From: Candidatus Altiarchaeales archaeon
Lineage (GTDB): Archaea > Altiarchaeota > Altiarchaeia > IMC4 > SCGC-AAA252-I15
Reading direction: 5' to 3'
Length of the DNA: 49,586 nt
Assembly (NCBI GenBank): GCA_014729705.1
Contig: WJJK01000045.1
Location: forward strand, 1 to 49,586
The notes under the pieces are model-generated. The model had not been told where the DNA came from, ran no database searches, and saw only the letters and a program-made list of their open reading frames with translations. Within the stretch, counting starts at the first letter, position 1. Every line of letters starts with the position of its first letter. A program made the position numbers and the translations under genes. Shown here piece by piece: positions 9,481 to 36,866 of this stretch.

Positions 9481-9778
9481 TCGTTTCAGAGTAATAGTTA
9501 ATCAGGATAGCAAAGGTGAGATACTTTGCTTCTGTCCTTATGATGAGTACCTCAAGGGTCTTTGTGTTTGTAGGGAAAAGTACGACTGCCCGGAAGCTAT
9601 AATAGAGTTAACAGTCCTTCCTAACTCCCGTCCCTCTGACAAAGTAGTGGCGGCGGTTGAAAAAGGGAAGCGGGAAGTTAAATCCGCAGAACGTGAGATA
9701 AAGCGATCTGCGGATAGGATAAAGCAAGGCGTTAACCGTTTGGAGAGAGTAGCCGGTAAAAACCGATGGAGGATTTAA
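9464..9778 (+). CDS. hypothetical protein
   Basis: 104-aa ORF with Cys-rich N-terminal and basic C-terminal halves. Confidence 0.45.
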   Translation: MPMESNRFRVIVNQDSKGEILCFCPYDEYLKGLCVCREKYDCPEAIIELTVLPNSRPSDKVVAAVEKGKREVKSAEREIKRSADRIKQGVNRLERVAGKNRWRI

Positions 9779-9779
9779 G

Positions 9780-12884: not shown

Positions 12885-13553
12885 ATGAGCAAAAAAACGG
12901 AAATCAACGAAAAAGATTTAGACAATAAGGCGGAAAAGGACCCTAAGTCCAAGCGCTGGAATAATGCCAATAGTCGTAAGAACCTGAAGCAGTACCAAAA
13001 AGATAAGAAAGAAGAGCCTGTAGTTCCCGAGGTTGTCTCTGAAGATGAGGAGGACAACACGCAGGCGCAAGCACTGGTTGTAGGTCGCAAGATAAGTCCT
13101 GATTTAGTAAAGAAACTCATGCCGCAGCGGGGAGTACTTACTGCAGCAGAAAAGAAAAGATTTAATGGTATTGTTATCACGTATTTGGCAGATTTTAAAA
13201 ACGAAGAACCAACAGCCGCAGACGTTGATGACATTTTCGAAATAGCCAAAAGCGACATTATGGAGACGCGCCTTTTGCAGGCGTCAAAAAGCGACCCTCA
13301 AGCTTTGGTTAGTATTTCTCAAGCTATTGAAAAGCTTAATAAGAGAAAGCAGCAGGCTAAAGAAAACCTGTCCAGCCGTCGAGTGGATCGCAAAGGAACG
13401 CGAGCTTCTGCTGACGTGAACATCATCGACCTTGTAGTTCAGTTTGATAGTCTCCGCAAGAATGAACAGAGAGACAAAATCGATGCTCTCATGGCCGAAG
13501 AGGACGAGACGTCGCAGAAGCTGCGGAAAGTCCTGGAAGACGACGGGTACTAA
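12885..13553 (+). CDS. putative small terminase subunit (by position)
   Basis: 222-aa basic/charged protein directly upstream of TerL and TAATG-coupled to it. Confidence 0.4.
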   Translation: MSKKTEINEKDLDNKAEKDPKSKRWNNANSRKNLKQYQKDKKEEPVVPEVVSEDEEDNTQAQALVVGRKISPDLVKKLMPQRGVLTAAEKKRFNGIVITYLADFKNEEPTAADVDDIFEIAKSDIMETRLLQASKSDPQALVSISQAIEKLNKRKQQAKENLSSRRVDRKGTRASADVNIIDLVVQFDSLRKNEQRDKIDALMAEEDETSQKLRKVLEDDGY

Positions 13554-16500
13554 TGCTAAAACAAGACGATCCCGAGTTTCTTTCTGCATCCGCAGAACTA
13601 ATACAATTCTATAGACAATACCCTGAAATAGCCGCAGAAGAACTTTTTGGAACTCCGCAGAAACCTTTTCGGTTATCCAACATCCAGAAAGTAGTCTTGC
13701 GGTCTATGTGGTTTAAGAACTACGTCATGGCTGTTATGTGCCGCGGCGCCGGAAAATGCGTAGGCAAGGATTCTTACATATTCACAGACCGTGGGATCTA
13801 TCGAATAAAGGACTTGATGGCAAAGACATCTGTCCTACAAGATGCTGATTTTTCTATATCTGATGGACAATCTCTGGCACCTGCACAAAAGGTTTACTAT
13901 GATGGTATTCAAACGGTCAATATTTTGGAAACATCATTGGGCTATTCTATAAATGTAACCGATGATCATCCATTACTCGTTATGGGTAGTTCTGGCAAGT
14001 TGGAGTGGAAGAAAGGCTGCGATATTTCAGAGAATGATTATGTGTGTATTTCACGAGGCGACAATGTTTGGTCTAACAAAACTTCTACTGGGCAACTAGC
14101 ATATTACTTAGGACTTTTAGTTGGTGATGGGTGTTTAACTCGACGGAACATTATATCTTTTTCTAGTGAAGATGATGAACTATTGTCTGAATTCTGCAGA
14201 CTTACTAAAGAAATATTTGGCTATGATGCCAAGATTAGTGCCCCGAAAGGTAAATGTCGTGAAGTTAGAATTTATTCTGTAAATATATGTGCGCAACTCT
14301 TAGGGTTAGGTTTAGATTATAGTAAAGCATCTGAAAAAAAGTTCCCCTCTTATTTATTAGATAAGGATAGAGATTCTATAATATCTTTTCTTCAAGGATT
14401 ATTTGATACCGATGGTACAGCAGATAGCAGAAGATTGGCAGTTTCTTTTTGTACATCTAGTGCCGAGCTGGCTGAGATTGTTCATTTATGTTTATTGAAT
14501 TTAGGTATAGTTTCCAGAAAAAGATTTAAGAAGAATAGTAAATCTGGTGCTTACATTATTGATTTATCAGGTAAGGATGCTGTCTTATTCAAAGAGATTG
14601 TTGGTTTTAGATTGGAACGTAAACAGAATATTCTCAAAGATAAATGTACGGATGTAAAAATAAACACCAATAAAGATGTTATTCCCCACCAACACGCACG
14701 TTTTTCCAGATTGTTTGCATCAACCTACGGTTTAATACCCAGAGAAAATCGACAACGCCTACATAAATACTCATGCTATTATGATATTTCCTATGAATCT
14801 TTGGACAGAACTTTATCCGATATAAACAAGAATGACGAAGATTTTTCATATTTACAAAAACTTCTAAAGTTAAATTATCGTTTTGATAAAATTGTGAAGA
14901 AGAGTCTTGCTGCGGAGGAAGTTTATGATCTTTGCATGCCGGAAGAAAATCAGCACGCATTTGTTTGTAATGGTTTTATTAACCATAATACTTTCTTATT
15001 AGGAACATTGGCGTGTCTAAAGGCTATGCTTTATCCAGGACACCGTGTTGGCCTTATTGCACCTACTTTCCGTCAGTCCAAGTTGATTTTTGACGAGTGT
15101 AATCGTATTTTTCAAAGGTCTCCTATACTACAGGATGCCTGTGAGAGAAAACCCACACAGCAGTCAGATAACTGCTACATAAGATTTAAATCAGTAGCCG
15201 GACAGCCTGGTTCTCTGGTTCAAGCTATTCCGTTAGGTGATGGTACCAAGATACGAGGTTCTCGTTTCTTTACCATTGTCTGCGACGAGTTTCCGCACAT
15301 TCCTGAAGAAATCTTCAATATGGTTATTCGTCCTATGGCCGCTACTGTTAGCGATCCCATGGAGAACGTAGAGCGTTTAGAGCAGCAGCGTGTTCTACTC
15401 GAAAAGGGACTTATAACAGAAGAGCAGCTGGAAGAGGAAACAAATGCTAACCAGATAATCATTACCTCGTCCGGCTATTTTACGTTCAACCACATGTATA
15501 CTTTGTATTGCGTCTACCGAGATGAGATGCTAAAAGGAAATCTAAAGTATGCTGCTTTCAGGGTTCCCTATACATTACTTCCTCCGGGATTTCTGGATGA
15601 GGATAACGTGGAAGCTGCCAAGAGGGAAATGTCCAGCCTTGAGTTTCGCATGGAATACGAGGCAGCTTTTATTCCGGATACGGATGCTTTCTACAAAGCT
15701 TCTCTTTTGGAGGCTTGTAGTAAGACAAGTTTCTCAACCCAGGTTGTGGGGGAGCCAGGAAAATCTTATTGTTTAGGTATAGACCCTGCTAGAAGTGAGG
15801 ACTCTTTTGCCCTAGTCGTAGTAGAAATCGGGCAGCCTGCTAAGGTAGTTCACGCTCTAGAAATCCACAAACAACCCTTCCCTAAGATGGCACAAACCAT
15901 TGAAGATCTTTGTACTGCTTTTAATGTTCAGCATATCTACATGGACTCCCAAGGAGGAGGTCATGCCATTAAAGACATTTTAGCAGAAAATCCTACCGGC
16001 AATCAATCTGGTCCCATCTTAGACCCCGAGGACGAAGTCCACCAGAGAAAATCAGGACGGCACATTCTAACTATGTGCAATTTTTCTACTGATTTTATTT
16101 CCGAATCTAACTACGCCGCTCTTAGGTTGTTGGAACACCGAGAGCTTCTATTTCCTAATGTTCCTAAGGATACCGAGCCCACTCCTGCGCAGGAAAGATC
16201 TTGGCAGACCATTCAGGATATGAAAACTCAAATGCAGACTATTGAGTTGAGTGAAACCCCTACAGGCAAGCAGCATTTTGATGTGCCCAAGGGAGGAGGT
16301 CACGGAAAGCAGAAGAAGGACTTGTATACAGCATTTATGTTGGCTGCACGTTGCGTCTATGACCTTGTGTGGTCCGAAGGTCTGCCCGATGAGATTCTGC
16401 ATCACGGTGGAGTGATGCAGCCCCGTAACAGAAATAGAAATGACAAAGAAATGGAAGACGCCTTTGGAGGCGAGATTCCTCAAGCCCTAAGAGATAAGAT

Positions 16501-16624
16501 AGAAATAGCTCAGGATCCGGAAGGTTTTAAAAGGAAGATGATTCACCAAGCCTTCCATGGAAGAAAGGTAATAACAAGCAGCGCTGCCTGTTTGACGCCC
16601 AAGCCTAAAAAGAAGGGGAAATAA
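13553..16624 (+). CDS. terL: terminase large subunit precursor containing a 411-aa intein
   Basis: The Walker A motif is split: CRGAGK | intein | TFLLGTLAC. Removing residues 69-479 restores GAGKT. The remaining 612 aa fits TerL in size and position. Confidence 0.85.
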   Translation: MLKQDDPEFLSASAELIQFYRQYPEIAAEELFGTPQKPFRLSNIQKVVLRSMWFKNYVMAVMCRGAGKCVGKDSYIFTDRGIYRIKDLMAKTSVLQDADFSISDGQSLAPAQKVYYDGIQTVNILETSLGYSINVTDDHPLLVMGSSGKLEWKKGCDISENDYVCISRGDNVWSNKTSTGQLAYYLGLLVGDGCLTRRNIISFSSEDDELLSEFCRLTKEIFGYDAKISAPKGKCREVRIYSVNICAQLLGLGLDYSKASEKKFPSYLLDKDRDSIISFLQGLFDTDGTADSRRLAVSFCTSSAELAEIVHLCLLNLGIVSRKRFKKNSKSGAYIIDLSGKDAVLFKEIVGFRLERKQNILKDKCTDVKINTNKDVIPHQHARFSRLFASTYGLIPRENRQRLHKYSCYYDISYESLDRTLSDINKNDEDFSYLQKLLKLNYRFDKIVKKSLAAEEVYDLCMPEENQHAFVCNGFINHNTFLLGTLACLKAMLYPGHRVGLIAPTFRQSKLIFDECNRIFQRSPILQDACERKPTQQSDNCYIRFKSVAGQPGSLVQAIPLGDGTKIRGSRFFTIVCDEFPHIPEEIFNMVIRPMAATVSDPMENVERLEQQRVLLEKGLITEEQLEEETNANQIIITSSGYFTFNHMYTLYCVYRDEMLKGNLKYAAFRVPYTLLPPGFLDEDNVEAAKREMSSLEFRMEYEAAFIPDTDAFYKASLLEACSKTSFSTQVVGEPGKSYCLGIDPARSEDSFALVVVEIGQPAKVVHALEIHKQPFPKMAQTIEDLCTAFNVQHIYMDSQGGGHAIKDILAENPTGNQSGPILDPEDEVHQRKSGRHILTMCNFSTDFISESNYAALRLLEHRELLFPNVPKDTEPTPAQERSWQTIQDMKTQMQTIELSETPTGKQHFDVPKGGGHGKQKKDLYTAFMLAARCVYDLVWSEGLPDEILHHGGVMQPRNRNRNDKEMEDAFGGEIPQALRDKIEIAQDPEGFKRKMIHQAFHGRKVITSSAACLTPKPKKKGK
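13757..14989 (+). mobile_element. LAGLIDADG-type intein in the TerL P-loop
   Basis: Starts at Cys (CVGKDSYIF), has a TDDH block B, LAYYLGLLVGDGCL and FLQGLFDTDGTA dodecapeptides, ends ...NGFINHN and is followed by a +1 Thr. Confidence 0.9.
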
Positions 16625-18511
16625 ATGGCGGACGACCTCAAAAAGCAGATTAATGAGAAGTTAGAACATGCCAAAATTCTCTCCCACGAAGAGGCCCGTC
16701 CTGGAGTTCACGAAATGGAGGTCGAGGTCGGCCCCGGTGGGAGATCTTTTCAGGATCTTGCCTACTTAAGCGGTGAAGATGGAGATCCTTCTCCTGTGAA
16801 GTTCTGGGAAGGGGGCCGTAACATCTCCCGCGATTGGCTTCGTCGCGTCGATTTAGATTTGCTCATTGGTAAGCCTCAGGTAGTTCAGGCTCGCCCGGAG
16901 CAGCTCTATGACAATGCTCTTAACACCTATCATTCGCAAGGAATGGTTGGTACCATAATAGATACTCTTACAAACTTTGCTTCCAAGGGATTTAAAAACG
17001 ACATAGATGACGAGGAGATTAAGTTATTCTACGATACTTGGGTCAGAGAAATAGGTTTCCAAGAAGTAGTAGAAAAAATCTTTTTTGATTTCTTTAGGGT
17101 AGGTACGGTCACTACTTTTAAAATCGTAGGTAAGTTTGATCCGAAACTAAGACCTGAAGATTTTGATAGAACTGTAAAAAATGCTTCCGCAAAAGCTCAG
17201 TTTAAAACCAACGCAGAAATGCAGCAGTTGATGGCTTATAGAGATTGGGCAGCCGCAAAAAAGGTTTGGTCTAAATCTTATGTGCCCCTTCACTATACTA
17301 TTTTAGATCCTCGTTTGGTTACTCACGAAGGGCCGCTTCTCTTTGATCAGACGCAGACTTTTCTGAAGCCAGAAGCTTTCAAGGAAATGAGAGACATTCT
17401 GAAAAAACCTGCTAGCCAGCGCCCTAAGGAAAAGCAAGAGGTTATAAGGAAACTTCCTACTGAGTTTGTAGAACAGATAAAAAAGAATAAACCTGTAAGG
17501 CTTCCCCAGGAGTTGGTAGGTAGGTGTGATTATAGAAGGCAAGACTACGAGCGTTATGCTAAGCCAAAGATTGCTCGTCTTTTGGATGACATTCGCTACA
17601 AGGAAGAACTAAAGAAGGCTGATTTTTCCACTCTGGACGGAATCACAAACTATATCCTCAAGATTACTATTGGAAATGACGACCACCCAGTCACGGATCA
17701 ATCTCAGCTAGAGGCGGTTGCTAAACTTTTTGATACCTCAAGTAAAAGTTTCGACATTGTTTGGAACCACACACTCCAGGTAGAGAAGATCACCTTTCCT
17801 GAAATAGATACGATTTTAGGACAGAATAAGTTTGCCCAGGTAAATGACGATTTGAGTCAAGCTTTCGGTGTAACCCGAGCACTTCTTGATGGACAGGTAA
17901 GCGGTAATGCTAAAGCCATAGAAGCAGCCACTAAAGCTTTTGCCGAAGAAATAAACTATGCTCGACGCTGCATAAAGCGGTGGATAGATCGTGAATACGA
18001 GGAAATAGCTCTGGCTATGGGCTTCACTCGTTATCCTAAAGTACGCTTCGACGAGAATACTCTCAAGGATGAGATCATGCTTATGAGTGTTGTTCAGGGT
18101 ATGATAGACAGGCGCATTATCTCCTACGAGACCGGTATCGAGAAGTTAGGCTTTGACTTTGGTAATGAGCTGTCGAACATGATGCAGGAGCATCCTATGG
18201 TTCAGGCAGGTGTTCTTGGTGTTATCGGTTCTCCTTATAATCCTAAGGCTCTTCCTCCGGAAAATCCTCCGGCCGAAAAGGACACCACCAAGGATGGTAA
18301 GGAAACTACTCTTACACAAGATGATTTGGAAGAGTTCAGAAAGAACATGGAGCAACAACTACAAGGTCTTAAAGATAACATACAGGAAGTTCAAAGAACT
18401 CCCAAGGGAACTCCAAGCGAGGGCCGGCCTCGAAAGGGCCGGGGAAAGCCTCGTCAGAAATCCACAAAACCCAACACTAGGCCACGCAAGCCAAATAAAC
18501 AATCTACGTAA
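16625..18511 (+). CDS. portal protein (by position and size)
   Basis: 628 aa with a TAAATG junction after TerL and a basic C-terminal tail. No motif verified. Confidence 0.6.
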   Translation: MADDLKKQINEKLEHAKILSHEEARPGVHEMEVEVGPGGRSFQDLAYLSGEDGDPSPVKFWEGGRNISRDWLRRVDLDLLIGKPQVVQARPEQLYDNALNTYHSQGMVGTIIDTLTNFASKGFKNDIDDEEIKLFYDTWVREIGFQEVVEKIFFDFFRVGTVTTFKIVGKFDPKLRPEDFDRTVKNASAKAQFKTNAEMQQLMAYRDWAAAKKVWSKSYVPLHYTILDPRLVTHEGPLLFDQTQTFLKPEAFKEMRDILKKPASQRPKEKQEVIRKLPTEFVEQIKKNKPVRLPQELVGRCDYRRQDYERYAKPKIARLLDDIRYKEELKKADFSTLDGITNYILKITIGNDDHPVTDQSQLEAVAKLFDTSSKSFDIVWNHTLQVEKITFPEIDTILGQNKFAQVNDDLSQAFGVTRALLDGQVSGNAKAIEAATKAFAEEINYARRCIKRWIDREYEEIALAMGFTRYPKVRFDENTLKDEIMLMSVVQGMIDRRIISYETGIEKLGFDFGNELSNMMQEHPMVQAGVLGVIGSPYNPKALPPENPPAEKDTTKDGKETTLTQDDLEEFRKNMEQQLQGLKDNIQEVQRTPKGTPSEGRPRKGRGKPRQKSTKPNTRPRKPNKQST

Positions 18512-18527
18512 GGAGGGATAGCAATCC

Positions 18528-21164
18528 ATGGTAGATAACAAAAACGTAGAGGAGGGAACCGATAAAGTTTCCGCCCGCGACCTTCTCAAGGAAATGAGAG
18601 AGTTCGCTATCACTGTAGGTGAAGAATGTCCCGAAGGGCATCGAAGAGACCCCAGCAGCGGTCGCTGCCTGCCTATCGGCAGTACAGATCACACTGCCTT
18701 TACTCGAAGCCTCAACGATGATCAAGGTGATGAGTGGAGAGGTCTTGTCGATAAGGACAACGAGACTTTTGATAACGAAGAAAATGTAGCAGATAGAGAG
18801 TCTGCTTCTAATACAGAGAAAGCAGTCGATGCTGATCTGATGGACGAACCTGAAAGTTGTGCCCACGGTACGACTTTTTCTTTTGTTCAAAGAAAATGCG
18901 TTTCTCCTGAGGAGGCTGAAGCTGAAAATAACGATGACAAGGCCATGACCGCCTCTGATGAGTACATTCTTGAGGACGCTAAGAACGGACACGAAGAGGT
19001 TGTTTCTAAGGATCCCCGCGGACGAAGAGATCCAGTGGGGTTTGATTGTCCTCCTAATCAGTTCTTTGACTTCAAGAGGCGTGAATGTATTCCACTCAAC
19101 AAAGATACCGTAATGGCTTCTATCGCTTCTGGTGGCCTGAAGGAAGAAGCTTTTCATGGTGTGGCTTGGACCTCTCCGGATCCTGTTGATGGCCACCGCC
19201 ACGCGGTTACTGTTGATATGGAAGGAAGTGGTAGAACTTCCGTGGCTGTTGGTGGAATCATGGAGCGTTATCCGCACAGCCATGATGTGGAAGATTTCGA
19301 GGTTATTCCCCACGAAGAAGGTGACTACACTTCCCGCCACCCCGGCGGTGTTAATCCTATGGCAGATACTTATGAGATGGAAGCAATGCCTTTGGTAGGT
19401 TCGGAAAGCAAGTTGATGACTGATGCGGAATACGCGGCTGACGAGAAGGAAGCCAAGAGGTCTGATCTTCCAGATGATGCTTTTGGTGTTCCCGAGGATA
19501 GGAAGTTCCCCCTCGATACTTGCGACCGTGTAAGAAACGCAATGGCTCGTTTTAACCAAGCCAAGGGGCTTTCTGCTTCTGATAAGAAGGATCTTAAGAG
19601 AAACATTCTTGAGCGTGCTCTTGAATGTAAGATAGACGTCGAGGAGTTCAAGAACGTAGGTCCTGATGTAGGAGAAGAGACCATCAGAAAGATCGAGAAG
19701 AAAGTAAACGGCTCTTCTGAGGAAGGAAAGAAACTTTCTACCAAGAAGAGGAAGGGGCTCCCTGCGAGCGCCTTTGGTGTTCCTGGAAAGAGAAAGTTCC
19801 CTCTCGATACCTGCAACAGAGTTCGTAATGCAATGGCTCGATTCAATCAGGCCAAGGGACTTACTTCCAGCGAGAAAGCGACTCTACGCCGAAAGATTAT
19901 GGCCAGAGCTAAGAGTTGTGGTATTAAGGTAGACGAGTTTGCCAAGGCTACTACCGCTGAGGATTTTGAAAAGGTTTTCGCTCAGCTTATTGTTCCTTTC
20001 CAGAGGGAAAAGGCTAAGCGCTTGGATGCCTACCACGCCGATAAGGCCAAGGATAAAAAAGGACCTTGCCCTCCAGGGATGGAATGGGATCCAAAGACTA
20101 AGCGCTGCATTAAGATGAAGGCTTTCTATGATAAGGTAGTCGACAAGGCCAGCCACCAGGAAATCATTTCCAAGGACCCTGCTGGTAGAAGAGATACCGA
20201 GGGCTTCCAGTGCCCAGACGGATGGTTCTTCGATTTTAAGAACAGAAAGTGCATCCCTCTTGACCCAGAAGAAAAGAGAAACTTCCAGCCTGGTGATACC
20301 ACTAAGGCCGCGGAAGAAGACGCTGCCAAGAGGGATCTTGCTCCCTCCCCTAAGGGTAAGCCTGCCCGACTTCCTCAAGATTGTCCAAAGGGAACTATTT
20401 GGGATCCTAGGCTCAGGAAGTGTCGTCCATTAGATCCTCCGGACGGTGCGCAACCTCCTCGTGGTAAAGCCTCTGATGATGAGGGCTCTACCAATCCCAA
20501 CGGCCCTGGCAAAGAGAAAGACACTAAGGGTTGCCTGCCTTTCCAGGTTTGGAACCCAAAGACTCAAAAGTGTGAGACGCGAAAGAAGCAGTTCAAAGGA
20601 AAGTCAGATTCTGAGAAGGCTGTTAACGCTCAGCCCAGCAATAGAGAAGGACTGGTTGGAGCCCCAGCCGGCAAAGTAAAGCATGCTACGGATTGTCCTC
20701 CTGGAACTATTTGGGACGGAAAGAACAGGCTTTGCAGGCCGCTGGACTCTATGGACAAGAGTCGTCCTGACGGAAACAGCCCCCAGAATCCGCAGAACTT
20801 TGCTACAGTAGAGGATGTTGTAGAGAACATGTCCTTGGCAAAGCTCATAGCTCACCTGGATCAGATCATCAGAGAAGAGGTTCAGGATACTCGAAAGGAG
20901 AAAGCCAAGGTAGCTGCTAAGGATCTTCCCAACGAGGCCTTCCCGCCTTCCTTGGTAGGCTCTACTCGCCGAAGTCTCATGCACCACTCTCCTGATGTAA
21001 CCGATCCTTATGACACCGGTACTGTGGATGTTGCCCGCCTTCGCAATGCCCTTGCTCGCGTGAATAAGATAAGTGGTTATTCGGAAAGGGCTGTTGATGA
21101 GGCTTATGATCATCTTCTATTCCATGCCCGAGAGGTTGTCGCCCAGCATTTGGGAAAAAAGTAA
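18528..21164 (+). CDS. head-module protein with 8 Cys-pair modules and a duplicated FPLDTC..RVRNAMARFNQ module
   Basis: 878 aa. Contains repeats of the form CPxGxxWDxxxxxCxPLD and two ~63-aa tandem copies. Confidence 0.7.
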   Translation: MVDNKNVEEGTDKVSARDLLKEMREFAITVGEECPEGHRRDPSSGRCLPIGSTDHTAFTRSLNDDQGDEWRGLVDKDNETFDNEENVADRESASNTEKAVDADLMDEPESCAHGTTFSFVQRKCVSPEEAEAENNDDKAMTASDEYILEDAKNGHEEVVSKDPRGRRDPVGFDCPPNQFFDFKRRECIPLNKDTVMASIASGGLKEEAFHGVAWTSPDPVDGHRHAVTVDMEGSGRTSVAVGGIMERYPHSHDVEDFEVIPHEEGDYTSRHPGGVNPMADTYEMEAMPLVGSESKLMTDAEYAADEKEAKRSDLPDDAFGVPEDRKFPLDTCDRVRNAMARFNQAKGLSASDKKDLKRNILERALECKIDVEEFKNVGPDVGEETIRKIEKKVNGSSEEGKKLSTKKRKGLPASAFGVPGKRKFPLDTCNRVRNAMARFNQAKGLTSSEKATLRRKIMARAKSCGIKVDEFAKATTAEDFEKVFAQLIVPFQREKAKRLDAYHADKAKDKKGPCPPGMEWDPKTKRCIKMKAFYDKVVDKASHQEIISKDPAGRRDTEGFQCPDGWFFDFKNRKCIPLDPEEKRNFQPGDTTKAAEEDAAKRDLAPSPKGKPARLPQDCPKGTIWDPRLRKCRPLDPPDGAQPPRGKASDDEGSTNPNGPGKEKDTKGCLPFQVWNPKTQKCETRKKQFKGKSDSEKAVNAQPSNREGLVGAPAGKVKHATDCPPGTIWDGKNRLCRPLDSMDKSRPDGNSPQNPQNFATVEDVVENMSLAKLIAHLDQIIREEVQDTRKEKAKVAAKDLPNEAFPPSLVGSTRRSLMHHSPDVTDPYDTGTVDVARLRNALARVNKISGYSERAVDEAYDHLLFHAREVVAQHLGKK

Positions 21165-21591: not shown

Positions 21592-22110
21592 ATGCGTAAG
21601 ATTAAGAGAACACAGTATAAGGACAAGGCTTTCCATCTTCCTGATAACGAGAGGGAGGCTGTTGCTCGCGGATTGTTCCACTTAGTAGCTGATACTTTTG
21701 CCATGGCCATAAAGGGTTACCATTTCCATTGGAATGTTGTATCTCCTATTTTTGAAGATCTTCACGAGATGTTCCAGGAAGATTATGAACAAATTTTGGG
21801 GCATGCTGATTTGCAAGCCGAAAGAATAAGGGCACTTGGATTTTCGGTTCCCGGTAGCCTTTCTTCGTTCTCCTCTGAGAGTAGTATTATGGACCAGAAT
21901 GGACTTCCAGACTGGAGGTTTATGGTAGAGGAATGGATTAGAGATCACGTACACATGGCTCGAGAGGCCAGGCAGGTGCAAAGCGTGGCCGAAGCTGCTG
22001 GAGACCAGAACACTTTAGCCATGTTAGATAGCGTTATTCTTTTCCACGATAAAAGGGCTTGGATGTTTAGAAGTGTAGTCCAAATGAGTCCTGATAGATT
22101 TCCGAGGTAA
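21592..22110 (+). CDS. dps: Dps-family ferritin-like protein
   Basis: HFHWNVVSPIFEDLHEMFQEDYEQILGHADLQAERIRALG and AGDQNTLAMLDSVILFHDKRAWMF match the Dps ferroxidase and helix pattern. Confidence 0.8.
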   Translation: MRKIKRTQYKDKAFHLPDNEREAVARGLFHLVADTFAMAIKGYHFHWNVVSPIFEDLHEMFQEDYEQILGHADLQAERIRALGFSVPGSLSSFSSESSIMDQNGLPDWRFMVEEWIRDHVHMAREARQVQSVAEAAGDQNTLAMLDSVILFHDKRAWMFRSVVQMSPDRFPR

Positions 22111-22427: not shown

Positions 22428-22634
22428 ATGCCGGCACTACCAAAGGAGGTAGAAACTTCCATGAATATTATCGAAAAAAACGAGAGATTAGTAGAGCAAG
22501 AAAAGATTAGAGGTCTTTTCTGTGTCCAAACTATGAAGCAAGCCATCGAGGATCTAAACGAAGCTCTTGAAGAAGACTTGGAAAACTCAGAAGAGAAAAC
22601 CGCCCCGGCTGAAGCCGGGATGGGAGGAAAATAA
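22428..22634 (+). CDS. small acidic protein
   Basis: 68 aa, with AAGGAG upstream. Confidence 0.4.
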   Translation: MPALPKEVETSMNIIEKNERLVEQEKIRGLFCVQTMKQAIEDLNEALEEDLENSEEKTAPAEAGMGGK

Positions 22635-24067
22635 TGACTACCGAAGATAACAAGATCAGACTCTATGCCCCGATAGAAGTTGAGGAGCAAGTAGAGAAAT
22701 CTGCCCAGGAGAAGGCTTCTTTTCTAACCTTCCCAGAGGAAAAGCAGCAAGATCTGCAATACATCAGATCCTGCCTGGTTTCAGCAGGAACCAATAAAAA
22801 CGGAGCCCACTTTCTACCTTCGGAAATGATGCAAGCCCACAACACCGTAGTTAACAAGGCTATAGACATCGAGCATGAAGAGGAAAGAGTAATAGGTCAT
22901 ATTTACGATTGTGCCTATTTGTTCAAGGATGGTAGTCAGTTTGATCCTCTTAAGATTATGGCAGAGTACGAAGAGGCCCAGCAGGATCTCGACGATTTGG
23001 ACATCGACATAGCGATAGCCGGCGTTATTCATAAGATGCGTTTCCCAGATTATGCTGAAGAAATCTCCAATGGTGAGTGGAAAGTAAGCATGGAGTGTTT
23101 CTTCAAAGATTTTGACATCAAGATTGGTAGTACTATCATCACCCGCGACGAGGCCCAGGCTTTGGGTTACGATCCCAATCAGCTTATCGGAGGTTTCGTT
23201 AAAGTGGTTGCAGGCCAGAAGGCTTTAGGCAAGCACATGGTGGCTCGCGTTTTGCGCAACATCACCTTTAGCGGTATGGGTATTGTTAAGAATCCCGCTA
23301 ACCCTCACTCTATTATCATGGAGACCGCGTCTCACCGTGAGCTCATGGAAAAGGGTGAGCAAGTAGTAGACCTGGAACAGGTCGACAATGTGCGTGGCCA
23401 TCAAGTAGTCCTGTCCGAAAAGGCCGGGGAAGAAACCCAGGTTGACAAGGAGGAAAAAGTGGCAGATAATTTAGTAGAACTAAATCTTGCTTCTGAAGAA
23501 GCGTCTGAAGAGAAGCCCAAGCTTTATGTAGAGCTGGACAAAGAAACTGGTGGGATAAAGAGAGTTCTCACCGTAAGTCCCAATCAGGAAGTCGCTGCCC
23601 GCTGGAACGGAGGAGGTCTTCCCGGCCCTGGCAGTGTTTCTACCCAGGTAGACAGTATTTGTAAGAGCTTCAAGAAGAGAGTAACCAAGTTTAATGCTCT
23701 CGATCAGTCTGAAGCTGTTGTGGTTCATGAACACTGGTGCGCTCTTTTTGAAGAGCCTTGCCCCGTAATCGGAGCCTCTGCTAAAGCCCCTGAGTGTTTG
23801 AGGAACCAGAGAAACTCGGTTACCCGGGATCCCGAAAGTACAACCATCACCAAGACCGTGCGTGAGCACGTAGATGACGGTCCTGGAAATACTTTTACCA
23901 CCACCCTGCAGCAGCAGTGGACTCCTTCCTCTCCTCGTGCTACTGCTTCTGAAAATTCTATGACCGAACGCAAGGAGCAGATAGCGCGGCTTCGAGAAGA
24001 TGCCGAATCCCTACGAAACTCTATCAGAGATTTTGTAGTGGATGATGAAAAAAAAAGTTCAAAGTAG
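22634..24067 (+). CDS. putative prohead protease / scaffold-like protein
   Basis: Lies between portal and capsid. GTNKNGAHFLPSEMM...AIDIEHEE..VIGHI resembles the NxNGxxF...H block of T4 gp21-type prohead proteases, recalled from memory. Confidence 0.4.
   Translation: MTTEDNKIRLYAPIEVEEQVEKSAQEKASFLTFPEEKQQDLQYIRSCLVSAGTNKNGAHFLPSEMMQAHNTVVNKAIDIEHEEERVIGHIYDCAYLFKDGSQFDPLKIMAEYEEAQQDLDDLDIDIAIAGVIHKMRFPDYAEEISNGEWKVSMECFFKDFDIKIGSTIITRDEAQALGYDPNQLIGGFVKVVAGQKALGKHMVARVLRNITFSGMGIVKNPANPHSIIMETASHRELMEKGEQVVDLEQVDNVRGHQVVLSEKAGEETQVDKEEKVADNLVELNLASEEASEEKPKLYVELDKETGGIKRVLTVSPNQEVAARWNGGGLPGPGSVSTQVDSICKSFKKRVTKFNALDQSEAVVVHEHWCALFEEPCPVIGASAKAPECLRNQRNSVTRDPESTTITKTVREHVDDGPGNTFTTTLQQQWTPSSPRATASENSMTERKEQIARLREDAESLRNSIRDFVVDDEKKSSK
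24048..24056 (+). promoter_or_regulatory. A9 slippery run (candidate -1 frameshift or transcriptional slippage site)
   Basis: The sequence gaAAAAAAAAAgt places A_AAA_AAA in the zero frame, 3 codons before the TAG. Confidence 0.5.
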
Positions 24068-24384
24068 TTAGTAGGTCCATCGAGGCTTCTTCCGTTATTA
24101 CTGATGAGGAAGTAGAGAGATTTAAACATAAAATTGACGCTTTTAAGAGGGCCCAGTCCCTTAACCCTTCCGCTGATCGCCAGAAGACTTCCGGCTTTCT
24201 CCTTTTAATAGGTTCCGCCCCTCGTATTGTAGAGGGCGGAGAGGATCGCGAGCACGCGATAGAGAAAGCTGTGGAAATCATTAACGAGCAGGACACCGTG
24301 GTTTTTCTCTCCAAAGCGGTGTTCGACATTGGCCAATCCAAGATTACCAAAGATCAGCTGATTTTTACAAGAGAGACTGTATAA
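24055..24384 (+). CDS. -1-frame 109-codon extension of the 477-aa protein (not in the ORF track)
   Basis: The frame is open over 24049-24381 with no ATG/GTG/TTG before 24271. It fills an otherwise empty 330-nt gap and ends in TAA just before the next gene's AGGAGG. Confidence 0.5.
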   Translation, partial: KFKVVSRSIEASSVITDEEVERFKHKIDAFKRAQSLNPSADRQKTSGFLLLIGSAPRIVEGGEDREHAIEKAVEIINEQDTVVFLSKAVFDIGQSKITKDQLIFTRETV

Positions 24385-24396
24385 GGAGGAAACAAC

Positions 24397-24597
24397 ATGG
24401 CAAAGCCAGATCTTCAGGGTGTTAGAGTTACTCCTGCTGGAGAACTTCGCCGAGACGACGGTAAACTCGGCCTCGCCCTCGCCTTTGATAACCTGCTTAC
24501 TGCTGAGGGCCCTCTTGATGCTACCGCCAGTGGCGTTCCTGTAGGAGGCCTTTATGTCGATTCCACTACAAGCGGAATCGCAGTTCGCCTGAGTTAA
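24397..24597 (+). CDS. small head-module protein
   Basis: 66 aa, with a strong TAAGGAGGA SD. Confidence 0.5.
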   Translation: MAKPDLQGVRVTPAGELRRDDGKLGLALAFDNLLTAEGPLDATASGVPVGGLYVDSTTSGIAVRLS

Positions 24598-25671: not shown

Positions 25672-26142
25672 ATGGTATTCATTCCACGAGACCCTGTAGT
25701 CCAGAATCAGTTCCTTGTACATGATTCATCCAAGGGAACTACTGCGACCGCTGGTGCCGCTGTCTCTCTTTCTGCGAGTGAGAAGGTTGAAACCGTAAGT
25801 GGTTCTAACACCAAGCCTTACGGCTTCCTCATGCAGAATGTAAAGGCTGAGTCTTCCGCACATCCGACTGGTTTCCAACTCCCAGGCGATCTGGGTAGTT
25901 CCGATGCCTTCACGGGTGATCCGGTTGGTGTTGCTCACCTTGGTCTGTATGACACAACTCACTACGACACCACTCAGACTTATACTGCCGGAGATCAACT
26001 CCAGGTAGCTGCCGACGGAAAGGTAACCCCTTCCGGTTCCGGTAACGAGCTCCACAGCGACGTAGTTGCTGTTGCTCAGAATACCCTTGATTCTAACGCC
26101 GTATCGGCTGGTAGGAATCTAAGGATTAAGCTTCTTATATAA
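25672..26142 (+). CDS. head decoration/cement-like protein
   Basis: 156-aa beta-rich protein immediately upstream of the major capsid gene. Confidence 0.45.
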   Translation: MVFIPRDPVVQNQFLVHDSSKGTTATAGAAVSLSASEKVETVSGSNTKPYGFLMQNVKAESSAHPTGFQLPGDLGSSDAFTGDPVGVAHLGLYDTTHYDTTQTYTAGDQLQVAADGKVTPSGSGNELHSDVVAVAQNTLDSNAVSAGRNLRIKLLI

Positions 26143-26165: not shown

Positions 26166-27233
26166 ATGGATAGAACAAAGCTACAAGAGCTCTTCAAGGC
26201 AACTGCGGCTATCGACACTCCTGAGGGTGTTGAAGCATATAAGGCCTTCGCGCAGGCTTTGACTGTACCTATTCTCCAGGAGATTCGCGATGCTTCGATC
26301 ATGCGTCAGCTGTTCGCTGTTGAGCGTCTTGCCCCTGGTGCGCAGGCAGTCTACCCAGTTGCCGATGACTTCGACATCCCGGTATTCGTTCTTCCGGGAC
26401 TCGGATACATCGCGCAGAACTTCGTTGAGGGTGTAGGTGAGGAAGTGTACGTACCTACTTTCTCCATCTCCGTTTCCGCGGACTGGAAGGTAACTTACGC
26501 ACGCGATTCCCGAATCGACATCCCTGAGCGCTCCGCACGAAACGCCGCTCGTGCTATTGCTGACTACGAAGAGGAGTCCGGTTGGCGAGTAATCGTTCCC
26601 GGTGCTACTACTAACTTCGCTGGTCAGGGCCTACTTGGTCCACGCAATGCTCCGATTTATCAGGTACCTACCGGCCAGACCGGTGAGAAGTTCCTCTCCA
26701 AGGAACTCCTAAACCTGATGATGGTTGGTATGAAGAGGGTACGCCGCTCTTTGACCGATCTTTACATTTCCCCTGAGGATGCCGCTGACATTCGTGAGTG
26801 GACTGATACTCAGGTTGATCCTATTACCCGACGCGAGATCTTCACCGCTTCCGGTATGGGACGCATCTGGAACATCAATCTTCACGAGGTATTCCAGCTC
26901 GGTGCTACTGGTCGATACAACATCAACCAGAACGGTGCTCAGTTCGGAGTATTCCAGGTTGATGGCTCTGGTGACTTCAACGACTATACTCCAACCAACG
27001 TTAACACTGTGGATGCTAACGGAAACGTTACTGCCGCAGGTGAGACTCAGGTCTACGGATTTGACCTCTCCGTTAACGACTCTCTGGTTATGCCTGTCCG
27101 CAAGGAGTTCGAGGCTCACGACGATCCTACTCTCCTTCGACAGCAGAAGCAGGGATTCTTCGGTTGGGAAGAGGTTGGTTTCGCCCTACTCGATTCCCGT
27201 ATGGTACAGATGGGTGTTATCGATCGTTCTTAA
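26166..27233 (+). CDS. major capsid protein (HK97-fold expected)
   Basis: 355 aa with a strong AAAGGAGGA SD, lying after the scaffold and decoration genes and followed by a large hairpin. Confidence 0.7.
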   Translation: MDRTKLQELFKATAAIDTPEGVEAYKAFAQALTVPILQEIRDASIMRQLFAVERLAPGAQAVYPVADDFDIPVFVLPGLGYIAQNFVEGVGEEVYVPTFSISVSADWKVTYARDSRIDIPERSARNAARAIADYEEESGWRVIVPGATTNFAGQGLLGPRNAPIYQVPTGQTGEKFLSKELLNLMMVGMKRVRRSLTDLYISPEDAADIREWTDTQVDPITRREIFTASGMGRIWNINLHEVFQLGATGRYNINQNGAQFGVFQVDGSGDFNDYTPTNVNTVDANGNVTAAGETQVYGFDLSVNDSLVMPVRKEFEAHDDPTLLRQQKQGFFGWEEVGFALLDSRMVQMGVIDRS

Positions 27234-34152: not shown

Positions 34153-35109
34153 ATGTCAGTCCTCAAGCCTATCATTGATAGCATTGTCAATGGTACTTTG
34201 ACGATTACTGCAACGTCACCCTCGGCCGTGGGGACGATGTTTGATAAGATTCAGATCTTTAGGGCTACTTCTGTAAATGGTCCCTTCAGTCTTATAGCCA
34301 CTATAGATTTTTCTTCTCCTGCAGCCTACTGTGATTTAACCAGTACTCCTAAACTTTATTACAAAGCTCAGTATTACAATAGTACCACTATGGTTTCCAG
34401 TACGTTTTCTGATGTGGCACAGGAAACTGGTGTATTCTCCGAGTATAGCGTACCGGAAAGCACGGCTACCTATCCGCCAGAGTTGGCTCTTTCTGACAAC
34501 GATAGGGAAATCGTTGAGTCTATAAGGATAACCGTAGGAGATAGCGGTCTGATAGAGCGGGATCTTTACGATTCTTCTGACCCGCAGTCGGCAGCTGCTT
34601 GCGCTGCTAATATAGACCCAGCTGGTTGTACTTGGGAGTTAACAGAATGGAAAGGTTGGCCACAAAAGGTAGTTCTTAATGGGGAAGAGAAGACCAACAT
34701 CAACGACCCTCAGGTACTTGGTTATCGCTACCTTGTTTTTAGTGGTTCTGGGCCGTGTATTACAGGCTCTTTAGACGTTTTCTATAACCACTTCCGCTTC
34801 TCCGATCGTGAGATTTTATTGGCTTACGATCGGGCCAGAAATCTTTTGATTACTTGTGGTTTGCCGGAATCTAAGGTTACGACAGAGATGCGTATAATGC
34901 AGGCTGCCATTCTTCTTCTTGAAGGAGAGATTAGGGAGCTGTCTCAAAATGCGTTCCGCATTGTGGATGGAGATACTACCTATGATAATAGTGCTACCAT
35001 TCGTTCCCGAACTACTGATTTGGAGGACCTCAAGAGAAAGATTGACAGACTGATTGAATGTGCTCGCTATGAAGCGGCGTACGACATCCAAGGTTGTAGG
35101 ATAGACTAA
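34153..35109 (+). CDS. hypothetical virion-module protein
   Basis: 318 aa, with an AAAGGAGGA SD. Confidence 0.5.
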   Translation: MSVLKPIIDSIVNGTLTITATSPSAVGTMFDKIQIFRATSVNGPFSLIATIDFSSPAAYCDLTSTPKLYYKAQYYNSTTMVSSTFSDVAQETGVFSEYSVPESTATYPPELALSDNDREIVESIRITVGDSGLIERDLYDSSDPQSAAACAANIDPAGCTWELTEWKGWPQKVVLNGEEKTNINDPQVLGYRYLVFSGSGPCITGSLDVFYNHFRFSDREILLAYDRARNLLITCGLPESKVTTEMRIMQAAILLLEGEIRELSQNAFRIVDGDTTYDNSATIRSRTTDLEDLKRKIDRLIECARYEAAYDIQGCRID

Positions 35110-36866
35110 TGCCCAAAAAACTGGTCACCAACAAAATGAAGAAGGACTATAAAAGGCTGATGTCTCAGCTTGTTAGAGATCTTTCCCAGGAGCTGGTAAT
35201 AGTTCAGGAAAGTCCTATGTTTGTAGATTGTCCTAACTGTTTTGAAGCAGGAACCCTTATAGAGACACCTTTTGGAATGAAGAAGATAGAAGACTTCCAA
35301 CCAGGGGATTATATTTTGGACGGCAATGCAGAGCCTCGACTTGTGGATAAAGTATTTCATAGACATACTGACGCATCTTTCACGTCCATTTTTACACACG
35401 GTAACAATGTGGGGTTGACAGCCACTTCCAATCACCACTTAATGGTACATGAAAACAGGGGCACAGCCTACCATCCCATTTTAGGTGGGTCGAAAGAAAA
35501 AGAGATAGGTAACATACAAAAAGGCGATATAGTTTCTAAAGCGATCAGAAAACTACCCCAAGAGCCTTTAGAAAAGCTATGGGTTGATTGGAAAACAAAT
35601 ACACATGGACCTAAAAAAGTTTTGCCAGAAATCTTGGAAGTTACCGATGATTTCTTATTTGCTGTGGGTTTGTATTTGTCCGAAGGCGTTACAAGCAAAA
35701 GCCGAATAGTAAGTTACTGTCTTAATGACTTGGAAGAAGAAATAGGTCATAAAGTTTGTGCGTATTGGAAATCGGTTGCAGAATGTAACTACACGATGTG
35801 TACTAGAGGAGGGGGTAGGAATAGGATTTTTGAGATATATAGTTCTTATTTGGCTGATCTATTAGATAGTTGGTGTGGACACGGCGCGCAAAATAAAAAA
35901 ATACCCACCTCCTTGTATTACAGGTTGAATGCCCGTCAAACTTTAGTGTTGTTGTTTGGTTTGTTTGTCGGCGCTGGTCATTATGAAAAACAATATGATA
36001 GTGTGGTATTTAGTACTATTTCTAAATCGTTGGCATATCAAGTTTACAATCTACTTCTATCTTGTGGATTCGGTGCCAGTATACTTTCTCAGCCTAGTAA
36101 GGTGGGATCGGACGGCATTTTTAGACAAGAATCGTTCGTAGTTAGATATTGGACAAATAAAGATAAGGCACAAAGAGGGACAATAAGAACTGAGGATAGA
36201 ATCTATCAGGTAGTAAAATCTGTAGCGCACAGTCATAAATCAGTACCTGTTTGGAATCTAGAGGTTCAAACCGAACACAGTTATATTGCAGATGGCTTTA
36301 GTGTACAGAACTGCATATGGGATTCTGTTAATAAAAAATCCTCTAATGTCTTTGATGGTTCTTTTACGTCCGCAACTACTATTTTTTCTGGTACCAGTGA
36401 GGAGCGGGTTATAAATCCTATATCTTTCACTGTTGGACGTTGTCCTGTTTGTATAGGTGAAGGTCAGATTTTTACCAACAAAGAAATCTGCATTCCTGCT
36501 ATGATAAATTTTTTCTCTGGAACCGGCATGCGCCGTGGTTTATTTATGAGCACTGCTGCAGGTAAGGAAGGGATGAACTTGGTGGTGGTTAAGACTCTCG
36601 CCTGCCACTATGAACTTTTACAGAACAATGAAACTTTTTTTATTCATAACAATGTTAAATGTGTGAAGTTCAAGCCTCCTTTCCTAAGAGGGTTGGGTGG
36701 AGAAGAGACTGTTTGTGAGACTATTCTTCAGACTGCCGACGAAGGACAAAGGACTTCTGGTAAGTTTGGTGGTGGAGACAAGTTAAGTCGAGATGATGAT
36801 CCAAGAAAGAGGATAAGAGGTCCTTCTGATATTCTGGATCAGAGAGGTAAACTGAGAGGTAGGTAA
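35109..36866 (+). CDS. virion-module zinc-knuckle protein precursor containing a 358-aa intein
   Basis: Layout is ...FVDCPN | CFEAGTLIE...GFSVQN | CIWDS.... The 227-aa extein carries CPNC and CPVC pairs. Confidence 0.75.
   Translation: MPKKLVTNKMKKDYKRLMSQLVRDLSQELVIVQESPMFVDCPNCFEAGTLIETPFGMKKIEDFQPGDYILDGNAEPRLVDKVFHRHTDASFTSIFTHGNNVGLTATSNHHLMVHENRGTAYHPILGGSKEKEIGNIQKGDIVSKAIRKLPQEPLEKLWVDWKTNTHGPKKVLPEILEVTDDFLFAVGLYLSEGVTSKSRIVSYCLNDLEEEIGHKVCAYWKSVAECNYTMCTRGGGRNRIFEIYSSYLADLLDSWCGHGAQNKKIPTSLYYRLNARQTLVLLFGLFVGAGHYEKQYDSVVFSTISKSLAYQVYNLLLSCGFGASILSQPSKVGSDGIFRQESFVVRYWTNKDKAQRGTIRTEDRIYQVVKSVAHSHKSVPVWNLEVQTEHSYIADGFSVQNCIWDSVNKKSSNVFDGSFTSATTIFSGTSEERVINPISFTVGRCPVCIGEGQIFTNKEICIPAMINFFSGTGMRRGLFMSTAAGKEGMNLVVVKTLACHYELLQNNETFFIHNNVKCVKFKPPFLRGLGGEETVCETILQTADEGQRTSGKFGGGDKLSRDDDPRKRIRGPSDILDQRGKLRGR
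35238..36311 (+). mobile_element. intein with a (possibly degenerate) LAGLIDADG domain
   Basis: Starts with Cys1 (CFEAGTLI), has a TSNH block B, motifs FLFAVGLYLSEG and LLFGLFVGAGH, ends VWNLEVQTEHSYIADGFSVQN and is followed by a +1 Cys. Confidence 0.8.

Follow-up and report, generated by a model that had tools for sequence, protein, structure and literature searches.

In the dnaX gene (tau/gamma) of Thermus thermophilus, nine consecutive A's within the coding sequence are known to cause transcriptional slippage, as reported by Larsen et al. (2000) and outlined in PMC5009743. In general, runs of nine A or T residues allow efficient slippage by bacterial RNA polymerase, of which the hybrid is 9-10 bp in length (PMC5009743). 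For the E. coli polymerase, which may not be the polymerase acting at the locus described herein, slippage is undetectable on less than 8 A's (PMC6260861). The C-terminal extension of phage head and tail proteins by ribosomal frameshifting has been described for gene 10 of T3 and T7, for phage A2 and for the Listeria phages A118, A500 and PSA (PMC5009743), and in the tail-chaperone genes of some T4-like phages the long form is reported to be produced by plain gene fusion (PMC10885494).

In this study, a stretch of 49,586 nucleotides (referred to as the window) was analysed with respect to a homopolymer of nine A's, located at positions 24048-24056 on the plus strand with G on both sides, which is here proposed as a recoding signal. 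No other homopolymer on the two strands of this 49.6-kb window reaches 9 bases. The A9 run lies close to the 3' end of a listed ORF for a head-region protein of 477 aa (plus strand, 22634-24067; C-terminus ...RDFVVDDEKKSSK*), hereafter the body gene, of which the last codons read GAA (24047-24049) AAA AAA AGT TCA AAG TAG. The zero-frame stop TAG (24065-24067) is thus placed three codons past the run, and the heptamer A_AAA_AAA (24049-24055) is in the X_XXY_YYZ phase of the body-gene frame and is where the ribosome would slip if the frame were changed during translation. The -1 frame is free of stop codons from 24049 to 24381 and closes with TAA at 24382-24384 (KKKFKVVSRSIEASS...LIFTRETV), giving 111 codons from 24049, or 109 codons after the slip (the extension, plus strand, 24055-24384 including the TAA; KFKVVSR...FTRETV), and its earliest ATG, GTG or TTG is the GTG at 24271. 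These features, together with the location of the extension in a gap otherwise devoid of genes (24068-24396), had been pointed out in a preliminary description of the sequence and came out the same after re-reading and re-translation. One detail had to be corrected: the extension, said to stop 4 nt before the AGGAGG of the next gene, ends with a TAA that actually abuts or overlaps this Shine-Dalgarno sequence (24384-24389), which together with the ATG of the next gene (66 aa) forms the 3' boundary of the extension (plus strand, 24384-24399).

The genes are arranged in the order of terminase (13553-16624), portal (16625-18511), body gene, cement-like protein (25672-26142) and major head (capsid) protein (26166-27233), and the proposed recoding site, 3 codons from the stop of the body gene, is located within this virion morphogenesis module. 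The phage lineage is uncultured, with contigs of up to about 300 kb and a capsid protein distantly similar to that of Bacillus phage G.

An open frame of 111 codons is expected by chance with a probability of roughly 0.005 after our own arithmetic, (61/64)^111, and chance is ruled out as the explanation because the open frame is conserved in relatives. For the analysis of coding signal, we used codons 8-28 of the extension, which lie upstream of nearly every candidate start. The pairwise differences within this segment were 1422, 826 and 2831 at codon positions 1, 2 and 3, respectively, and the synonymous share of differing codons was 50% in the -1 frame versus 15% and 3.5% in the other frames. 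The Phe residue just past the run is invariant, with variation between TTC and TTT of which the consequence in the zero frame is a change from Ser to Leu. Conservation of the extension frame as coding in relatives, singled out in the preliminary description as a point to be checked, is borne out by this synonymous bias, which begins at the run and lies ahead of the possible starts. The extension is under purifying selection, as judged from these substitution patterns.

The run consists of 9 or 10 A's in all 48 related loci, in the same phase and never shorter. These loci comprise 37 distinct sequences and come from over 30 metagenome samples or assemblies independent of each other (IMG/VR, JGI, ENA/NCBI and Logan), obtained with several assemblers; A9 was found in 32 and A10 in 5 of the 37, with none shorter, although the ratio 37/37 overstates the independence because the sequences are related by descent. 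In the five A10 sequences the extra A arose by substitution of a flanking base, leaving the frames unaltered. The phase GAA AAA AAA Axx is kept in every one of the relatives, and the -1 ORF is about 110 codons long throughout. The zero-frame stop is present 2-3 codons past the run in 39 of 39 distinct junctions and the +1 frame closes within 2-9 codons, which is weak evidence for slippage given the relatedness of the sequences. The sole change at the Glu codon, from GAA to AAA in one relative (L043), makes the run longer, and the codons flanking the run vary freely. In these genes AAA is a minor codon, used for about 30% of Lys with AAG as the preferred one, and GAA is used for about 47% of Glu, so the combination GAA AAA AAA is expected in only about 4% of independent lineages. 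The first and the last A of the run (a1 and a9) are superfluous to the heptamer and yet invariant, an invariance that could in part reflect an amino-acid constraint in both frames. The conservation of run length thus goes beyond the heptamer, as indicated by the minor status of the AAA codon, the variation of the neighbouring codons and the variation of the control site upstream described below.

In a sister lineage, the body and the extension are encoded by one plain ORF (P0077, 569 aa; P0095, 567 aa), of which the junction reads GAG AAG AGT GTC... without A-run, the longest A-run being 5. When the junction-spanning protein of the window was compared with P0077, the two were colinear across the junction, with 50% identity over 135 aa (E = 7e-41). 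At the a8a9x codon, Ser or Thr is accepted in the fused lineage, for which the short form is evidently dispensable. The conserved signal, the coding character of the extension from the run onward and the colinear single-ORF fusions support the proposal of the preliminary description that the A9 run gives access to the start-less -1 extension, whether through -1 slippage of the ribosome or through slippage of RNA polymerase.

We consider it very probable that recoding, of either kind, takes place at the A9 run, and infer that two isoforms of 477 aa and 583 aa are made from the body gene. Most expression would stop three codons past the run, yielding the 477-aa protein, and a fraction would go on in the -1 frame to yield a 583-aa isoform, ...VVDDEKK-KFKVVSRSIEASS...TRETV, composed of the first 474 residues of the body and the extension, and thereby bearing at its C-terminus an additional alpha/beta domain some 105 residues long. 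The trans-frame junction of the predicted long form is ...DDEKKKFKVVSRSIE, and its junction-spanning Glu-C peptide is KKKFKVVSRSIE. In the transcriptional route, RNA polymerase would slip on the nine-base rA:dT hybrid with the addition of one A, and the resulting A10 mRNA would be translated in the ordinary manner into the long form. From mRNAs carrying A8, A9 or A11, in contrast, translation would end within a few codons and give near-identical short forms, on the same principle as in Thermus dnaX. A part may also be played by -1 slippage of the ribosome on A_AAA_AAA.

As to the main route of the frame change, our judgement that it is transcription stands at an even balance, ranked above the ribosomal route on three grounds: a minimum run length of nine, the lack of a conserved stimulatory RNA element, and the tolerance of runs of 4-8 at the site upstream. 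The complete reading, in which the strictly conserved A9 run of these large tailed phages, a widespread lineage, is a programmed transcriptional-slippage signal by which the late phage transcription machinery would set the ratio of the 477-aa and 583-aa forms, with a ribosomal -1 site 2.9 kb upstream in the same operon, is put forward tentatively, with slightly less than even confidence.

The strongest competitor, to which we assign an appreciable but lower probability, yields the same two isoforms mainly by translation, through a tandem -1 slip of two tRNA-Lys on the heptamer at 24049-24055 of an unedited A9 mRNA, comparable to dnaX, lambda G/GT or T7 gene 10. The exact X_XXY_YYZ phase of the heptamer in every relative is in its favour, and almost all the characterised recoding in phage structural genes is ribosomal. 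Moreover, the same genomes clearly employ -1 sites of the heptamer type at the end of the gene for an 878-aa protein, and the host translation must therefore support slippage on Lys codons. This upstream site, GGA AAA AAG TAA at 21153-21164 in the window, lies 2.9 kb upstream of the A9 run and is indeed present as a second -1 site at an A-run before a stop, as the preliminary description had stated. The heptamers used there in the same genomes are G_GGA_AAA, A_AAA_AAG and A_AAA_AAA, and the in-phase heptamer is kept while the A-run is 4, 6, 7 or 8. The A9 run, in contrast, is never 7 or 8 although the heptamer would survive such shortening, and the preferred Lys codon AAG is never used in it; in E. 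coli, A_AAA_AAA is far less prone to shift than A_AAA_AAG (PMC5009743).

Against the ribosomal route stands also the finding that neither a conserved stimulatory structure nor a conserved Shine-Dalgarno-like element was detected among the relatives. The consensus fold predicted with RNAalifold over positions -45 to +105 relative to the run is -0.47 kcal/mol, indicating no conserved structure; the 84 nt downstream of the run gave a fold z of -0.86 and no stimulatory structure, the search of Rfam gave no match at the junction, and no conserved Shine-Dalgarno-like element (GGAGG) was found upstream of the run among the relatives. In the window, a stable hairpin (plus strand, 24007-24043; -16.1 kcal/mol, z = -4.2), as stable as none of 200 shuffled sequences, ends 4 nt upstream of the run, and may, in the nascent RNA, stimulate slippage of the polymerase in this genome alone. 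A hairpin is also present in some close relatives. As a family-wide stimulator of slippage it was rejected, with a median z of -0.35 over 37 related sequences and no consensus structure by RNAalifold.

A separate small gene within the 330-nt stretch, translated from an internal or a non-canonical start (ATT, or the GTG at 24271), is regarded as improbable. Homologues of the extension are carried in the databases as stand-alone ORFs of 71-96 aa, and 14 of 40 distinct sequences have an ATG at codon 28 when the second in-run AAA codon is taken as number one (codon 29 if numbering begins with the first). The window has ATT where many relatives carry this ATG. The internal starts of the annotated ORFs, however, are not conserved. 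With the same numbering, the earliest in-frame ATG, GTG or TTG among the relatives can be as early as codon 18 or as late as codon 74, and initiation at the later ones would remove invariant residues. Ahead of the extension-frame starts, a Shine-Dalgarno sequence was found in 0 of 40 distinct sequences, in contrast to the next gene, which is preceded by a strong one in 30 of 38 relatives; independent initiation of the extension was thus rejected for lack of both a conserved start and a Shine-Dalgarno sequence. The approximately 28 codons upstream of the candidate starts are always open and coding-like, and in the AlphaFold2 model of the fusion they form beta-strands belonging to the alpha/beta domain of the extension (pLDDT 67-85). 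The single-ORF fusions of the sister lineage also speak against a separate gene, and no promoter or terminator was found at the junction between body and extension. To judge from these comparisons, the extension appears to be no separate gene and, with no start of its own, would be reached only from the upstream gene.

Even less probable, to the extent that we give it very little weight, is an artefact or decay, that is, a miscalled A10 within one plain ORF, or a frameshifted pseudogene. Homopolymers are classic places for both sequencing errors and mutational indels, but the identical out-of-frame arrangement recurs in 37 of 37 distinct sequences from the independent assemblies, more than 30 samples and several assemblers as listed above, and disposes of the plain A10 ORF that had been left in the preliminary description as the alternative outcome. 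The five natural A10 sequences with intact frames and the purifying selection on the extension likewise argue against it. No junction-spanning ORF of the A10 type was found among the few close relatives retrieved from a collection of 5.8 billion proteins, a word-limited search by which divergent true fusions were missed too.

An origin of the coding signal from the antisense ORF at 24024-24350 (108 aa, minus strand), which is open in the window and shares its third codon positions with the extension frame by coordinate arithmetic, hardly deserves consideration and was rejected, since in 39 of 40 distinct sequences the antisense frame is broken by 1-6 stops over the length of the extension, the window included, where the open 108-aa ORF ends short of the 3' end of the extension, and the neighbouring genes as well as the fusions are all on the plus strand.

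Relatives of the body protein are numerous (415 found, nearly all of 450-480 aa), divergent ones at 33% identity exist as well, and its sole family match is phrog_16389, itself without known function. By single-sequence and profile searches no Pfam, PDB or named PHROG family was detected, nor any capsid, tail or chaperone family, and tblastn against 50,697 phage genomes gave no match. The body part of the AlphaFold2 model for the 583-aa fusion (pLDDT 46) is too poor to use, and its Foldseek matches are meaningless. The label "protease/scaffold-like", given to this gene in the preliminary description, is not borne out, as the searches of Pfam, PHROGs and PDB turned up no protease and no scaffold family, and similarity was detected neither to the prohead protease families S78/HK97, S77/T4 gp21, S49/ClpP and S80 nor to scaffold families. 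The label was dropped because of this lack of family match and the unusable model; it fits by gene position only.

For the extension, no significant match was found in Pfam or PHROG, none in PDB by profile, and nothing significant in PDB or BFVD by Foldseek with the model, and only 8 representative clusters match it among 1.84 billion proteins. No relative was found among GenBank phages by blastn with the region or by tblastn with either the extension or the body, and no relative of the extension was found among GTDB genomes. An alignment mixing the stand-alone short ORFs with full-length proteins misaligned them and was not used.

In the public databases, all relatives of this locus are annotated as a protein of 450-480 aa plus a spurious ORF of 71-96 aa from an arbitrary internal start; the actual products, if recoding operates as proposed, would be the short form and one about 580 aa long. 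The extension, with its roughly 105 aa, is thereby marked as a functional domain worth characterising, and the uncultured phage lineage may use recoding to adjust the relative amounts of two head-region proteins. With 37 distinct sequences, in-frame fusions and a further site of the operon serving as internal control, the locus makes an unusually clean comparative case of recoding. The comparison argues for selection on the length of the homopolymer rather than on the heptamer, and thereby for slippage of the polymerase in a gene of phage morphogenesis, and a site of the A9 type would not be modelled by predictors built on heptamer plus structure. If transcriptional slippage is true, two recoding mechanisms could be compared side by side in one natural system, and this would be, to our knowledge, the first case in which programmed slippage of RNA polymerase serves a virion-module protein in a double-stranded DNA phage.

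Among the described systems, Thermus dnaX resembles the present locus in the homopolymer of exactly nine within the coding sequence, in needing no stimulatory RNA structure, in the stops that follow soon in the non-extended frames, and in the mixed mRNAs, predicted for the present locus, giving a long and a short product with a common N-terminus. The two differ in direction, because in Thermus the zero frame without slippage yields the long product and slippage leads to the short one, whereas here slippage with one added A would give the long form. Thermus dnaX is also a cellular replication gene, whereas slippage is predicted here for a gene of the phage structural region. Another parallel is given by the Shigella spa13 and mxiE genes (PMC5009743; Penno et al. 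2005), in which slippage on A or T runs adds about 110 aa at the C-terminus (112 aa in Spa13) in a fraction of the product, as proposed here, and the run is needed to join two overlapping frames into a functional long form. They are, however, bacterial virulence genes of type III secretion with the slippage site located early, and are not homologous to the phage protein. In E. coli dnaX and the IS elements using A_AAA_AAG, an A-rich X_XXY_YYZ sequence, tRNA-Lys, the -1 shift and two products with a shared N-terminus are all as proposed for this locus. The E. coli dnaX site has AAG in the A site, a Shine-Dalgarno-like element upstream and a stem-loop downstream, in contrast to A_AAA_AAA within a strictly conserved A9, for which neither stimulator was found here.

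Parallels in biological setting are 10A/10B of T7 and T3, the head and tail genes of A2, the genes of A118, A500 and PSA, and G/GT of lambda, all of them morphogenesis-module genes recoded close to their 3' ends to yield a minor longer isoform; A2 and the Listeria phages in addition carry, as the present phages do, two recoding sites in one structural region. Here an A9 homopolymer takes the place of the heptamer with structure, and the extended protein belongs to an uncharacterised family, distinct from the major capsid protein and from tail chaperones. Its extension is not of the Ig-like type and no structural relative of it was detected, whereas those of T3, A2 and others are typically Ig-like or decoration domains. 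The fused relatives resemble the tail-chaperone fusions of T4-like phages. No new principle is involved, the recoding of phage structural genes into two isoforms being established, as is slippage on A9, and what this locus adds to the described systems is a known viral trick in a new, uncultured phage lineage.

The window carries a single homopolymer of at least 9 bases within its 49.6 kb, a run of nine A's at 24048-24056 (A9), embedded in ...GTG GAT GAT GAA AAA AAA AGT TCA AAG TAG, of which the TAG terminates a 477-aa ORF (the body; 22634-24067, forward strand). Because this ORF ends at that TAG, the heptamer A_AAA_AAA (24049-24055) stands in the X_XXY_YYZ phase with it. The -1 frame (the extension) is free of stops over 24049-24381 (KKKFKVVSRSIEASS...LIFTRETV) up to TAA at 24382-24384, and its earliest ATG, GTG or TTG is GTG at 24271; AGGAGG (from 24384) and ATG (at 24397) of the downstream gene follow. 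The in-phase A9 and the open, start-less -1 frame claimed in the preliminary description are thus borne out by the window sequence, its ORFs and their translation, and the predicted trans-frame product is 583 aa (474 + 109).

For comparison, we used the DNA around homologues of the extension and of the 477-aa protein from IMG/VR, JGI, ENA/NCBI WGS and Logan assemblies, a set of 48 loci (37 distinct sequences) from more than 30 samples. In all loci the upstream gene has GAA AAA AAA Axx at its end (in locus L043, AAA AAA AAA Axx), and the A-run is 9 long in 32 of the 37 distinct sequences, 10 in 5 and shorter in none, while the codons flanking it are free to vary. In these genes Lys is encoded by AAA, its minor codon, about 30% of the time and Glu by GAA about 47% of the time, a usage that predicts GAA AAA AAA for only about 4% of independent lineages. 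In every locus of the set the zero-frame stop lies 2-3 codons past the run and the -1 frame stays open for 108-115 codons.

Over codons 8-28 of the -1 frame, which lie past the stop of the zero frame and precede nearly all candidate starts, pairwise differences numbered 1422, 826 and 2831 at codon positions 1, 2 and 3, respectively, and 50% of differing codons were synonymous in the -1 frame versus 15% and 3.5% in the two alternative frames, as the recoding proposal of the preliminary description requires. The motif IEA[SA]SVI and a Phe directly after the A-run are kept among relatives; the Phe codon varies between TTC and TTT, a silent change in the -1 frame that replaces Ser by Leu in the zero frame. 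Judged from these sequences, the extension should be translated from the A-run onward. AlphaFold2 predicted that the extension folds into a compact domain of alpha/beta type, to which the 'linker' residues 478-497 contribute beta-strands in the fused model (pLDDT 67-85).

Among 415 relatives of the body, nearly all of 450-480 aa, two are single ORFs holding both body and extension, P0077 (569 aa, NCBI) and P0095 (567 aa, JGI). At the junction their DNA lacks an A-run (GGT GAG AAG AGT GTC GAG..., longest A-run 5), and ORFs of this sister lineage, 567-569 aa, lie at 1016-2725 of locus L031, 1155-2858 of L032 and 1032-2735 of L033. Right through the junction, the 583-aa product of the window is colinear with P0077 (50% identity over 135 aa, E = 7e-41, one 1-residue gap). 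With the two parts joined in a plain ORF that has no A-run, the fused lineage is predicted to make the long form only, which in turn suggests that it is this form that cannot be dispensed with. Given the conservation of the run, the coding signal from the run onward, and the fusions, colinear alignment and domain model, recoding is the sole economical reading of the junction, and we regard recoding of either kind, ribosomal or transcriptional, as highly probable.

Slippage by RNA polymerase and -1 slippage by the ribosome would give the same protein, ...EKK-KF.... We favour transcription as the main route over the ribosome, and put its chance at about even. Bacterial RNA polymerase slips efficiently at nine A's or T's, its hybrid being 9-10 bp (PMC5009743), and for that of E. 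coli no slippage is detected below 8 A's (PMC6260861). By this route, A8, A9 and A11 transcripts would all yield near-identical short forms because the zero and +1 frames are both shut within 2-9 codons at 39 of 39 junctions. As in hairpin-stimulated slippage, a very stable hairpin in the coding sequence of the window (24007-24043, -16.1 kcal/mol, z = -4.2) ends just 4 nt upstream of the run; it takes an altered form in some close relatives, is not conserved family-wide, and is possibly a lineage-specific stimulator.

Ribosomal slippage on A_AAA_AAA is a somewhat less likely candidate for the main route, with perfect heptamer phase, phage precedents (PMC5009743) and a second, clearly heptamer-type site 2.9 kb upstream. 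This further -1 site before a stop, correctly noted in the preliminary description, closes an 878-aa gene with GGA AAA AAG TAA (21153-21164), where both G_GGA_AAA and A_AAA_AAG lie in phase immediately ahead of the stop; its -1 frame is open to 21589 and carries on the Cys motif CPEGFVLD...C.P repeated in the 878-aa protein. It looks like classical ribosomal -1 frameshifting, as far as sequence can tell. As an internal control, however, it speaks against the ribosome at A9, since relatives keep its in-phase heptamer and conserved extension while the A-run is 4, 6, 7 or 8 long (G_GGA_AAA with A4 in L001, a close relative; A_AAA_AAG in the window; A7 or A8 elsewhere). At A9, by contrast, the run never falls below nine, though the heptamer needs neither the first nor the last A of the run; Ser or Thr is accepted by the fused lineage at the codon holding the ninth A, and the sole Glu-codon substitution seen makes the run longer. 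In E. coli, A_AAA_AAA is far less shift-prone than A_AAA_AAG (PMC5009743), yet AAG, the preferred Lys codon in these genes, is never present at the A9 site. Nor is a stimulatory element conserved: no conserved RNA structure was found at the junction (RNAalifold, -0.47 kcal/mol), the fold downstream of A9 has z = -0.86, and Rfam yielded no match.

In public protein sets, homologues of the extension appear only as stand-alone ORFs of 71-96 aa with differing internal starts, as if it were a separate gene. This ORF starts at GTG in a 90%-identical relative (GTA in the window) and at ATG in more distant relatives (ATT in the window), and the first in-frame canonical start falls anywhere from codon 18 to codon 74. 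A Shine-Dalgarno sequence precedes 0 of 40 such starts versus 30 of 38 at the downstream gene, and no promoter-like or terminator-like site was found between the two ORFs. A separate gene is contradicted by these wandering starts without Shine-Dalgarno sequences, the coding nature of the upstream codons and the fusions. An antisense ORF (24024-24350) has its wobble positions in common with the extension frame, but because stops interrupt it in 39 of the 40 distinct sequences it is rejected as the source of the coding signal. Sequencing error or a pseudogene is contradicted by the same junction across 37 distinct sequences, the coding pattern and the fusions.

The region around A9 is a tailed-phage morphogenesis module, comprising a large terminase gene (13553-16624, 1023 aa) with an intein (LAGLIDADG endonuclease domain) inside, a portal-like protein (16625-18511), the 878-aa repeat protein (18528-21164), a Dps/ferritin-like gene (21592-22110; Pfam Ferritin, E = 9e-20) between the 878-aa and 477-aa genes, and, after the 477-aa protein, a 66-aa and an acidic 301-aa protein, a cement-like protein (25672-26142) and a major head protein (26166-27233) that distantly resembles gp27 of Bacillus phage G. 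The Dps/ferritin-like gene is kept at the same place in L001 and its identical copies (L002). The 878-aa protein has two DUF6582 modules and many short Cys-x-Pro-x-Gly...Cys-x-Pro repeats scoring as CBM_14/peritrophin-like, an odd make-up for a head-module protein. Another gene (35109-36866, 585 aa) likewise has Hint/intein and LAGLIDADG domains. No GenBank phage is similar to the region in either DNA or protein sequence, its relatives being metagenomic contigs only, some up to about 300 kb. A nucleotide-metabolism cluster at 8093-10382 (thymidylate synthase, dihydrofolate reductase and dNMP kinase) and the 200-300 kb length of related contigs suggest a large phage genome of which the window is a piece.

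The body matched no protease, scaffold or other named family and its structure model was unusable; the protease/scaffold-like label in the preliminary description, drawn from gene position only, is unsupported. The extension family is restricted to this phage group, and no structural relative of it was found. Distant relatives of the body (33-34% identity across residues 1-399) reach 695-750 aa and carry DUF6582-like C-terminal modules without A-run and extension (L061:1507-3594, L062:1495-3603 and L064:1489-3741). Because these bear other C-terminal modules on the same body, its C-terminus seems to be an attachment place for accessory domains. Modules of this type are also present in the 878-aa protein of the window.

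The A9 site is well supported and corrects the database annotation, and together with the site of the 878-aa gene it offers a natural side-by-side comparison of two recoding sites. At the sequence level it shows the features of both recoding classes except a ribosomal stimulator, which is absent. The case extends an already established principle to a new protein family and an uncultured phage lineage; if polymerase slippage is confirmed, the strictly conserved homopolymer would be a new variation on known recoding. The A9 arrangement works like Thermus dnaX and Shigella spa13, in which slippage on A/T-runs gives long and short products, and like the C-terminal extensions that recoding adds to phage structural proteins in T7 (10A/10B), A2, Listeria phages and lambda (G/GT).
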